Origin: an uncultured Chlamydiae bacterium
GTDB lineage: Bacteria; Chlamydiota; Chlamydiia; Chlamydiales; JAJFMB01
NCBI GenBank assembly: GCA_963696295.1
Contig: CAVOJR010000001.1
Span: 832,001 to 896,000, forward strand
Reading direction: 5' to 3'
Length of the DNA stretch: 64,000 nucleotides
Part shown: in pieces, positions 38,047 to 39,414 of the stretch
Numbering within the stretch: position 1 is the stretch's first letter
Layout of the letters: every line of letters begins with the position of its first letter
Program-made: the position numbers and the translations under genes
Notes under the pieces: model-generated
Database searches by the model: none
What the model saw: only the letters and a program-made list of their open reading frames with translations
Told to the model about the DNA's origin: nothing

Positions 38047-39414
38047 TTATTGTTCTACAACGAGCGTTTGCGAGCGCTCCGGACCCACCGAGACCATAAT
38101 GACGGGGGATCCCACCAGTTCAGAAATCCTGTGAATATATTTCTTAGCGTTCTCAGGCAGATCGGCGTAATTTCGAACAGCCGTTGTGGTTGTTTTCCAC
38201 CCTTCCATCTCTTCGTAGACCGGCTTCACCTCATCGAGATTAGCCTCTGGAGGAATGAATCGATAGACCTTGCCATTATACTCATATCCCGTGCAGAGCT
38301 TTATTTTCTCAAGAGGATCGAGAATATCCAGTTTTGTCAGCACAATCCCGTCAGCCGAATTCAGGCAAACGGCCTGTTTGACCAGGACAGCGTCGAACCA
38401 CCCCATTCTTCTCTTGCGCCCTGTCGTGGTGCCGTATTCCCGCGCTTTGGCGGCATCGGCAAAGGCATCTTTTTCGCTTACCTCTGACGGCATAGGCCCG
38501 TTGCCGACGCGTGTCGTGTAGGCCTTCACAACGGCAATCGTCTTGGAAATTTGCGAGGGGCCGACGCCGGCGCCGCAGCAGATCCCGGCCGCAATCGTAT
38601 TAGAGGAGGTGACGTACGGGAAGGTTCCAAAAGTATTGTCGAGGAATGTCCCTTGCGCCCCTTCGAAAAGAACCGTTTTTCCGCTGCGCAGGGAGTCGGA
38701 AAGAGCCGTCTCCAGATCTTCTTTCATAAAAGGTTTGAGTCTATTGGCATACGCCTGATACTCCTCGAAAATCGGAGCTGAAGAAATGGGGTCCGCCTCA
38801 TAAATGCTTCGCAGCGTCTGGTTAACTTTTGCGACATTGGACTCGAGCAGCCGTTTAAATTTGACCGGATCCATCAAATCCACCATCCGGATGGCAGAGC
38901 GGTTCGTTCGGTCGGAATAGCAGGGGCCGATCCCTCTTCCTGTGGTGCCGATCGAATGCTTCCCTTTGCTTTTTTCGATCAATTTATCCATTTGGCAGTG
39001 ATAGGGCATGATCACATTGGCATAAGGGGAAATCCACAATCTGTCTTTAAGCTGAATGCCCGATTTCTCCAGACCGTCGATTTCGGCGATCAGCACTTTA
39101 GGGTCGATGACCACCCCTCCGCCGATATAGCATTGAGTATTCCCGCTCAAAATGCCTGAAGGAATGAGATGCAGCTTGTACTCTTTGTCTCCAATGACAA
39201 CGGTGTGGCCGGCATTATTGCCTCCCTGCGAACGGACGATGTAATCGGCTTGAGAACTCAGCCAGTCGATCACCTTGCCTTTCCCTTCGTCGCCAAATTG
39301 GCCGCCCACAATGACCACCCCTCCGGAAAGAAGCGGCTCGGCAGCCTGAGCGTAGCTCAATAAGCTGAAAGAAAAAACCGATTGCAGAATAATACGCGAT
39401 AATATAGAATTCAT
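38047..39414 (-). CDS. purA: Adenylosuccinate synthetase with signal-peptide-like N-terminus
   Basis: [44 protein letters not shown]. Confidence 0.97.

Follow-up and report, generated by a model that had tools for sequence, protein, structure and literature searches.

Accounts of chlamydial nucleotide parasitism usually have NTT carriers importing nucleotides that the host has already completed, and bacterial PurA is ordinarily a cytosolic enzyme. Nucleotide kinases outside the cytosol are known from the secreted Ndk and Adk of pathogens and from AK2 of the mitochondrial intermembrane space, where the enzyme lies next to nucleotide carriers or host nucleotides. The closest described systems, as far as the accessible parts of the reports go, come from intracellular parasites. 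In microsporidia, which use NTT carriers, hexokinase paralogs with signal peptides (three of four in T. hominis) localise to the host interface, and the secreted hexokinases were proposed to raise the host ATP or nucleotide supply for import (PMC6460350, PMC5113988). In C. trachomatis, glycogen enzymes reach the inclusion lumen via T3S signals, and CPAF, HtrA and Ptr are listed as Sec/T2S substrates (PMC6717882). For Chromulinavorax, the available portion of the report names secreted hydrolases and no salvage enzymes (PMC6561590). A search of the open-access full-text literature, with subscription papers mostly outside its reach, returned no description of a signal-bearing PurA or of a Sec-exported salvage set in chlamydiae.

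The window analysed here, a stretch of 64,000 nucleotides from an uncultured Chlamydiae bacterium, encodes a PurA with a leader, named purA2 in the following. The names attached to its close homologs and to the phylum neighbours are those of Chlamydiota.

38047-39414, minus strand: purA2, adenylosuccinate synthetase with an N-terminal signal-peptide-like leader (455 aa; second copy in the genome)
39343-39414, minus strand: predicted Sec/SPase I signal peptide of purA2, codons 1-24 (from the heuristic and the structure model)
39277-39306, minus strand: loop bearing the catalytic Asp, of the PurA and not the PurZ type (from sequence, alignment and profile scores)
39420-39424, minus strand: Shine-Dalgarno-like TGAGG, 5 nt before the purA2 ATG

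By family assignment, the predicted enzyme is an ordinary PurA. It scores above both PurA equivalog cut-offs (NF002223, 577 vs 402 bits; TIGR00184, 506 vs 396), and its match to the known family (TIGR00184, NF002223, PF00709) is full-length from residue 32-34 with conserved catalytic and substrate residues. All 22 checked active-site positions are present, 20 of them invariant over 29 aligned rows, in agreement with the initial annotation, which had described the catalytic motifs as intact. They comprise the catalytic Asp of GDEGKG, the His, Thr, Arg and Gln residues for IMP and aspartate, and the K-x-D motif for GTP, with position labels that we take to be those of E. coli PurA. The best-matching solved structures are PDB 4M0G, 3UE9 and 1ADE. 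PurZ (NF038379) offers a likeness as a PurA-family paralog with a specialised role, but a PurZ identity of purA2 itself was rejected because of a score of 141 against a cut-off of 300 and the retained GDEGKG aspartate (Asp42). Base composition gives no signal of a recent foreign origin, with a GC of 0.514 vs 0.523 for the housekeeping copy. The differences from known PurA are the 29-residue signal-like leader and the status as a second copy beside a leaderless gene.

The first Gly of GQFGDEGKG is residue 37 in purA2 and residue 8 in most homologs, which gives an extension of 29 residues with A-Q-A at 22-24, close to the roughly 28 residues with an AxA site that had been claimed. The leader consists of a basic n-region (Arg7), a moderately hydrophobic h-region, whose best 10-residue Kyte-Doolittle mean of 1.67 is the weakest among 18 hydrophobic leaders, and the A-Q-A site, with cleavage predicted after A24 or possibly A25. 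Signal peptides were called in this study by our own hydropathy heuristic and by eye, not by SignalP. According to this heuristic, the leader scores as signal-like, as the initial annotation had supposed, and fits the Sec/SPase I pattern with small residues at -3/-1, no cysteine lipobox and no twin Arg. An AlphaFold2 model built on a 29-row alignment (mean pLDDT 84.9) places residues 2-23 in an isolated helix, after which comes a linker of low confidence, with a pLDDT below 50 at residues 21-24 and the first core strand at 32-37. The proposed TGAGG ribosome-binding site is found at its expected place, and the ortholog L032 has the same TGAGG 4 nt ahead of its ATG. The protein starts with the residues given in the initial annotation, and Met1 is the sole in-frame Met before the motif, again as noted earlier. 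A promoter scan upstream of purA2 returned one sigma-70-like site (39539-39510) with only 9/12 matches. Among the sequencing runs listed as holding this stretch there was none of RNA, and four DNA runs with a low share of it yielded short pieces, none of which spans the leader or the break in the adjacent GT90 gene. It is considered quite probable that the leader is cleaved by the Sec/SPase I route and that the enzyme is exported.

36965-38039, minus strand: gene of a signal-bearing GT90 glycosyltransferase; its start lies 8 nt beyond the purA2 stop

This gene is possibly co-transcribed with purA2. A frame change near 37130-37190 interrupts it, with the C-terminal portion of GT90 lying in a different frame, which points to an assembly indel or a pseudogene. 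No conserved neighbourhood of purA2 was found, as the flanking genes differ in L032, and a search for related loci yielded a single close one among 80 in genomes and 0 of 80 in metagenomes. Elsewhere, the window contains a complete kdpABC plus kdpD-like potassium uptake locus (27597-34540, plus strand), with a second kdpC outside this locus, and tandem 11-residue Gly/Thr/Asn-rich repeats (43600-44010, plus strand) at the C-terminus of a 384-aa ORF (42856-44010). An integrase-core ORF, IS3-type transposase-like by eye (51650-52498, plus strand), lies within a run of related repeat-protein ORFs (49322-54436, minus strand).

The housekeeping copy of the gene is found elsewhere in the source genome (G000).

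C1:1768055-1769305: leaderless purA (tblastn), with Met seven residues ahead of the motif

It is 48-52% identical to the leader-bearing form and, with neighbours read by sequence, lies in a lepA-purA-uppS-cdsA-cmk-like cluster; UppS homologs flank 29/29 other chlamydial purA loci examined. The closest named ortholog of purA2 (76%) comes from a Simkaniaceae MAG. Among the 120 best purA2 homologs, 24 are extended by at least 12 residues and 18, the query included, have hydrophobic leaders, compared with 4 of 140 motif-bearing rows among general PurA representatives. The leader is thus present in close relatives, where its absence would have spoken against the initial annotation. Its identity to purA2 ranges from 6-73%, vs 57-84% for the core. 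Such a variable sequence with a kept layout is the pattern expected of a signal peptide.

The PurA phylogeny suggested earlier placed the leader-bearing forms in one clade. Both trees are quick SH-aLRT trees with a midpoint root. In the 77-row tree, 23 of 24 long-leader rows form a clade (SH-aLRT 99), and P0109, the exception, has an internal Met where the start normally lies. The 64-row tree with outgroups recovers a 26-row clade (SH-aLRT 94) of 19 signal-bearing members and seven with short or hydrophilic extensions. This clade is separate from a leaderless chlamydial clade (SH-aLRT 96), which holds the housekeeping copies of the source genome and of G301, the other genome with a leader-bearing PurA; two further signal-bearing PurAs fall outside both clades. 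One leader-clade member is named Candidatus Babeliales, which may reflect transfer or misbinning. This name comes from a cluster look-up that gave names for 3 of 10 proteins, two of them with a taxon, so that the majority of the clade carries no taxon. PurA was matched in 126 of 301 chlamydial genomes. Outside G301, none of the 31 other loci read (the 29 best non-self matches and two more, with about 95 weaker matches unread) has a leader, and the leader-bearing form is rare in chlamydiae.

PurA is not the only nucleotide enzyme of the source genome with a predicted leader. The signal-bearing Apt to which the initial annotation had pointed, 11 kb away, lies at a distance of 11.0 kb, and two divergently related signal-bearing TPR-like proteins are encoded on opposite strands just ahead of it (24273-26000).

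26460-27041, plus strand: apt, adenine phosphoribosyltransferase with a signal-peptide-like leader, the sole Apt found in the genome
16085-16759, plus strand: YjjX-like NTPase (PF01931, E 5.7e-9)

The same annotation had also listed an N-terminal extension of the YjjX-like NTPase. The extension exists (about 33 aa), but it is hydrophilic, so the protein was rejected as a Sec substrate; another type of targeting is possible.

The nucleotide enzymes on which leaders were seen in the source genome are PurA, Apt, Prs, Upp, Udk, Cdd, Adk, Ndk and PyrB, together with a PyrD-like protein and a NUDIX hydrolase. Of these, PurA, Prs, Upp and Ndk also have a twin that lacks the leader. One leader-bearing Prs is intact and one degenerate; the latter is perhaps a non-catalytic subunit. 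Both Adk-family genes are leader-bearing, and a Met directly follows the leader in Adk1 and several orthologs, which makes dual starts possible. PurB is doubled, with one leaderless form and one with a non-Sec extension, possibly a T3S-type leader. P0273, its closest core homolog (72%) after P0272, has a classic signal peptide.

C1:2726119-2727102, plus strand: signal-bearing Prs paralog with altered catalytic motifs
C1:1137124-1138971, minus strand: second PurB (L222), with an extension of about 150 aa that has no Pfam match and is shared with P0272

In most of these enzymes, the Met that opens the leader is preceded by a Shine-Dalgarno-like sequence, though there is no clear one for PyrB or Udk. 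Among the gene positions listed, the leader-bearing enzymes are scattered except for the Adk2-Udk and ndk-ndk pairs. In this genome, which is 97% complete and contains carAB, neither pyrC, pyrI (tblastn) nor pyrF was found, and pyrE, hpt and purF were not found when the PF00156 matches were read. Four NTT carriers and several porin-family genes (Legionella_OMP and Pom hits) are present. A T2SS cluster has GspE above the cut-off, GspD and GspF as best hits below it, and clustered pseudopilin-like ORFs; we know of no sequence signal for T2SS substrates.

By the hydropathy heuristic, 740 of the 3477 called ORFs pass, 390 of them strictly; some are evident false positives at Rossmann or P-loop starts. 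Hits with a domain beginning inside the first ten residues were set aside as false positives. The Pfam scan covered 340 of the 390 strict candidates, and 50 strict and 48 looser ones were read by eye. Among the 340 scanned candidates, a hand tally of those whose domain begins behind the leader contained no tRNA synthetase, ribosomal, glycolytic or TCA protein. Numerous glycosyl-, sulfo- and methyltransferases likewise have leaders, as do two sugar epimerases and three AAA+ proteins, so the predicted export of cytosol-type enzymes is broader than nucleotides. ATP-dependent proteins such as the AAA+ group would be unexpected in the periplasm.

C1:2110638-2113237 and C1:2347754-2349304, plus strand: three signal-bearing ClpA/B-like AAA+ proteins (AAA_2 and D2-small)

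Signal-bearing proteins of this genome (L196-L275) also include GT10, 11, 25, 90 and 92, NodZ, sulfotransferases, FkbM and O-methyltransferases, as well as a serpin, a ubiquitin C-terminal hydrolase (on C2) and an AdoMet decarboxylase.

Comparable leaders recur in related genomes. They were seen in 11/30 inspected loci for Prs (the top 11, i.e. the source genome and ten genomes from five families), 12/17 for Apt, 9/12 for Upp, 15/31 for Hpt, 18/30 for Adk with six more ambiguous, and 1/24 for PyrB, where the fractions count the source genome whenever it matched, derive from leader-bearing queries, top-ranked loci of related genomes and calls by eye and are neither prevalences nor independent events. 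Some phylum tallies lack G005 and are lower bounds. The controls had no leaders in the loci inspected: 0/29 for UppS, 0/27 for other PurB and 0/29 for other PurA. G206, from the same family as the source genome, has a leader on Adk and on one of two Ndk. In many environmental chlamydiae (L306-L335), the main adenylate kinase begins with a signal-like leader, frequently with an internal Met behind it, and the Adk open frames are mostly shorter in family f4 genomes. In G301, Hpt, PurA and PurB each exist in a leaderless and a leader-bearing form, so that the path from hypoxanthine to AMP is encoded twice. Its Adk has no leader and its single Prs-like match is split or partial, and the enzyme set therefore differs between the two carriers. 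In G301, ndk is broken across two frames (L466/L469, C3:205082-205478), and such frame breaks may hide genes, e.g. Prs.

The reading preferred here is that purA2 is an export-targeted paralog and a member of a second, extracytoplasmic set of salvage and interconversion enzymes that feeds NTT import; it is held to be moderately probable. Dedicated paralogs would be exported by Sec and their leaders cleaved by SPase I. Exported purA2 would then use IMP, aspartate and GTP of host origin outside the bacterial cytoplasm, and the set as a whole would convert bases, nucleosides, ribose-5-phosphate and IMP to mono-, di- and triphosphates. The NTT carriers would import the resulting nucleotides, and the cytosolic twins would keep up internal recycling. 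The supply role of the set for NTT import is held to be less probable than export itself, though still more likely than not. The initial annotation had supposed that both routes to AMP, adenine salvage and IMP to AMP, may be exported. The candidate set turned out to be larger than that (leaders on Prs, Upp, Udk, Cdd, Adk, Ndk and PyrB), and at the level of sequence this interpretation is supported, with the qualification that the routes are duplicated, not moved, since leaderless PurA and PurB remain. The predicted leader of Apt is on a single-copy gene, unlike the duplicated PurA and PurB routes. The leaders on both Adk genes are difficult to reconcile with the export of all Adk, unless a cytosolic form arises from an internal Met.

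As the final site of action, a host-facing location (the inclusion lumen or the host cytosol, in either case via T2SS) appears slightly favoured, with the periplasm a less likely destination, because the source genome lacks bacterial partners for some of the exported steps: PyrB and the PyrD-like protein have leaders in the absence of PyrC, PyrE and PyrF, and PurA has one in the absence of a Sec-tagged PurB. Porin diffusion could nevertheless leave the periplasmic site open. A wider version, in which many environmental Chlamydiota and some Babeliales would have a second salvage pathway (Prs, Apt/Hpt/Upp, Udk, PurA, PurB, Adk, Ndk) that is delivered by Sec/T2SS to the inclusion or host cytosol and raises, together with host enzymes, the NTP supply for NTT, is put forward tentatively and with some doubt.

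Several other explanations have to be weighed. The leader could be an uncleaved anchor or be skipped by an internal start, in which case purA2 would be a second cytosolic PurA and not exported. The initial annotation had itself raised an internal GTG start near GGVV. The GTG at codon 36 outpairs Met1 at the anti-Shine-Dalgarno sequence (-13.2 vs -6.8 kcal/mol), which counts against the export reading, and the Shine-Dalgarno-like sequence 10 nt before it is strong. Non-export would also be consistent with the moderate hydrophobicity of the h-region, the clade members with hydrophilic extensions or a Met adjoining the core, and an in-frame TTG immediately before the core in the L032 ortholog. 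However, codon 36 is GTC in L032, the one ortholog whose DNA was read, and the TTG of L032 is CTT in purA2, so no internal start is common to both. A start at codon 36 would furthermore delete strand beta1 (residues 32-37) of the model, the Shine-Dalgarno sequence ahead of Met1 is common to purA2 and L032, and the n/h/c layout is kept even though leader identity drops to 6-24% in distant members. At the level of sequence, the reading of the leader stands, and a non-exported purA2 is considered very improbable. An annotation artefact from an upstream Met was rejected as well, since the leader is conserved and preceded by a Shine-Dalgarno sequence in the ortholog read.

Exported enzymes might also stay in the periplasm, using metabolites that enter through porins and passing their products to the NTT carriers, much as Adk and Ndk act in the mitochondrial intermembrane space. 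A Sec signal by itself delivers just to the periplasm, porin-family genes are at hand, leader-bearing Adk is widespread, and the leader-bearing Hpt-PurA-PurB chain of G301 is self-contained. By contrast, a Sec signal is missing from PurB of the source genome, and no bacterial partners were found there for PyrB and the PyrD-like protein. With these partners missing, the products would need host enzymes, although back-diffusion through porins could still serve, and a purely periplasmic set is regarded as unlikely. Less likely still is that export serves to alter host pools or signals, by a drain on GTP, IMP and PRPP or a shift of ATP/GTP, or has a non-catalytic role, instead of feeding the parasite. 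The degenerate look of one leader-bearing Prs and the glycan and methyl-transfer enzymes and AAA+ proteins of host-directed appearance in the leader set would suit this explanation; the succession of anabolic steps ending in NTT substrates and the conserved active-site residues of PurA speak against it. A similarly low probability is given to a general accretion of signal peptides on acquired or duplicated genes in parasites of protists, with the nucleotide theme being incidental. Signal peptides were predicted on 44% of the CDS of Chromulinavorax in the available part of its description (PMC6561590). About one fifth of the called ORFs of the source genome pass the loose heuristic, and a PyrB leader was found at a single inspected locus. 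Nevertheless, families of core translation, glycolysis and the TCA cycle are unseen among true leader-bearers, the same enzyme families are leader-bearing across several chlamydial families, and export-type copies of PurA and PurB co-occur in both carrier genomes examined.

If the wider version, with its pathway in many environmental Chlamydiota and some Babeliales, is true, nucleotide parasitism would be an active process of secreted enzymes, similar to viral auxiliary metabolic genes, and not passive uptake. For genome annotation, finding apt, upp, hpt, adk or pyrB in these genomes is taken as a sign of a cytosolic function, but many copies may work elsewhere. Secreted Ndk and Adk of other pathogens are known as single moonlighting proteins without Sec leaders, whereas the chlamydial set would consist of dedicated pathway paralogs. 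C. trachomatis is alike in running an ordinarily cytosolic pathway inside the inclusion lumen and having a Sec-to-T2SS route; however, its glycogen enzymes use T3S, and the Sec/T2S substrates in the accessible part of that account are proteases or have no assigned function, with no nucleotide enzyme among them. The closest analogy, going by the available sections of the reports, is with the microsporidian hexokinases, where an NTT-using parasite likewise has signal-bearing paralogs beside a cytosolic enzyme. That case involves the eukaryotic ER pathway, one glycolytic enzyme and a shown localisation, and the chlamydial one would involve bacterial Sec and a run of salvage enzymes. The conserved leader of purA2 is a real feature, and its predicted targeting together with the accompanying duplicated pathway would be new within parasite-secreted metabolism: a salvage step outside the bacterial cytoplasm that parallels the gain of signal peptides by microsporidian hexokinases.
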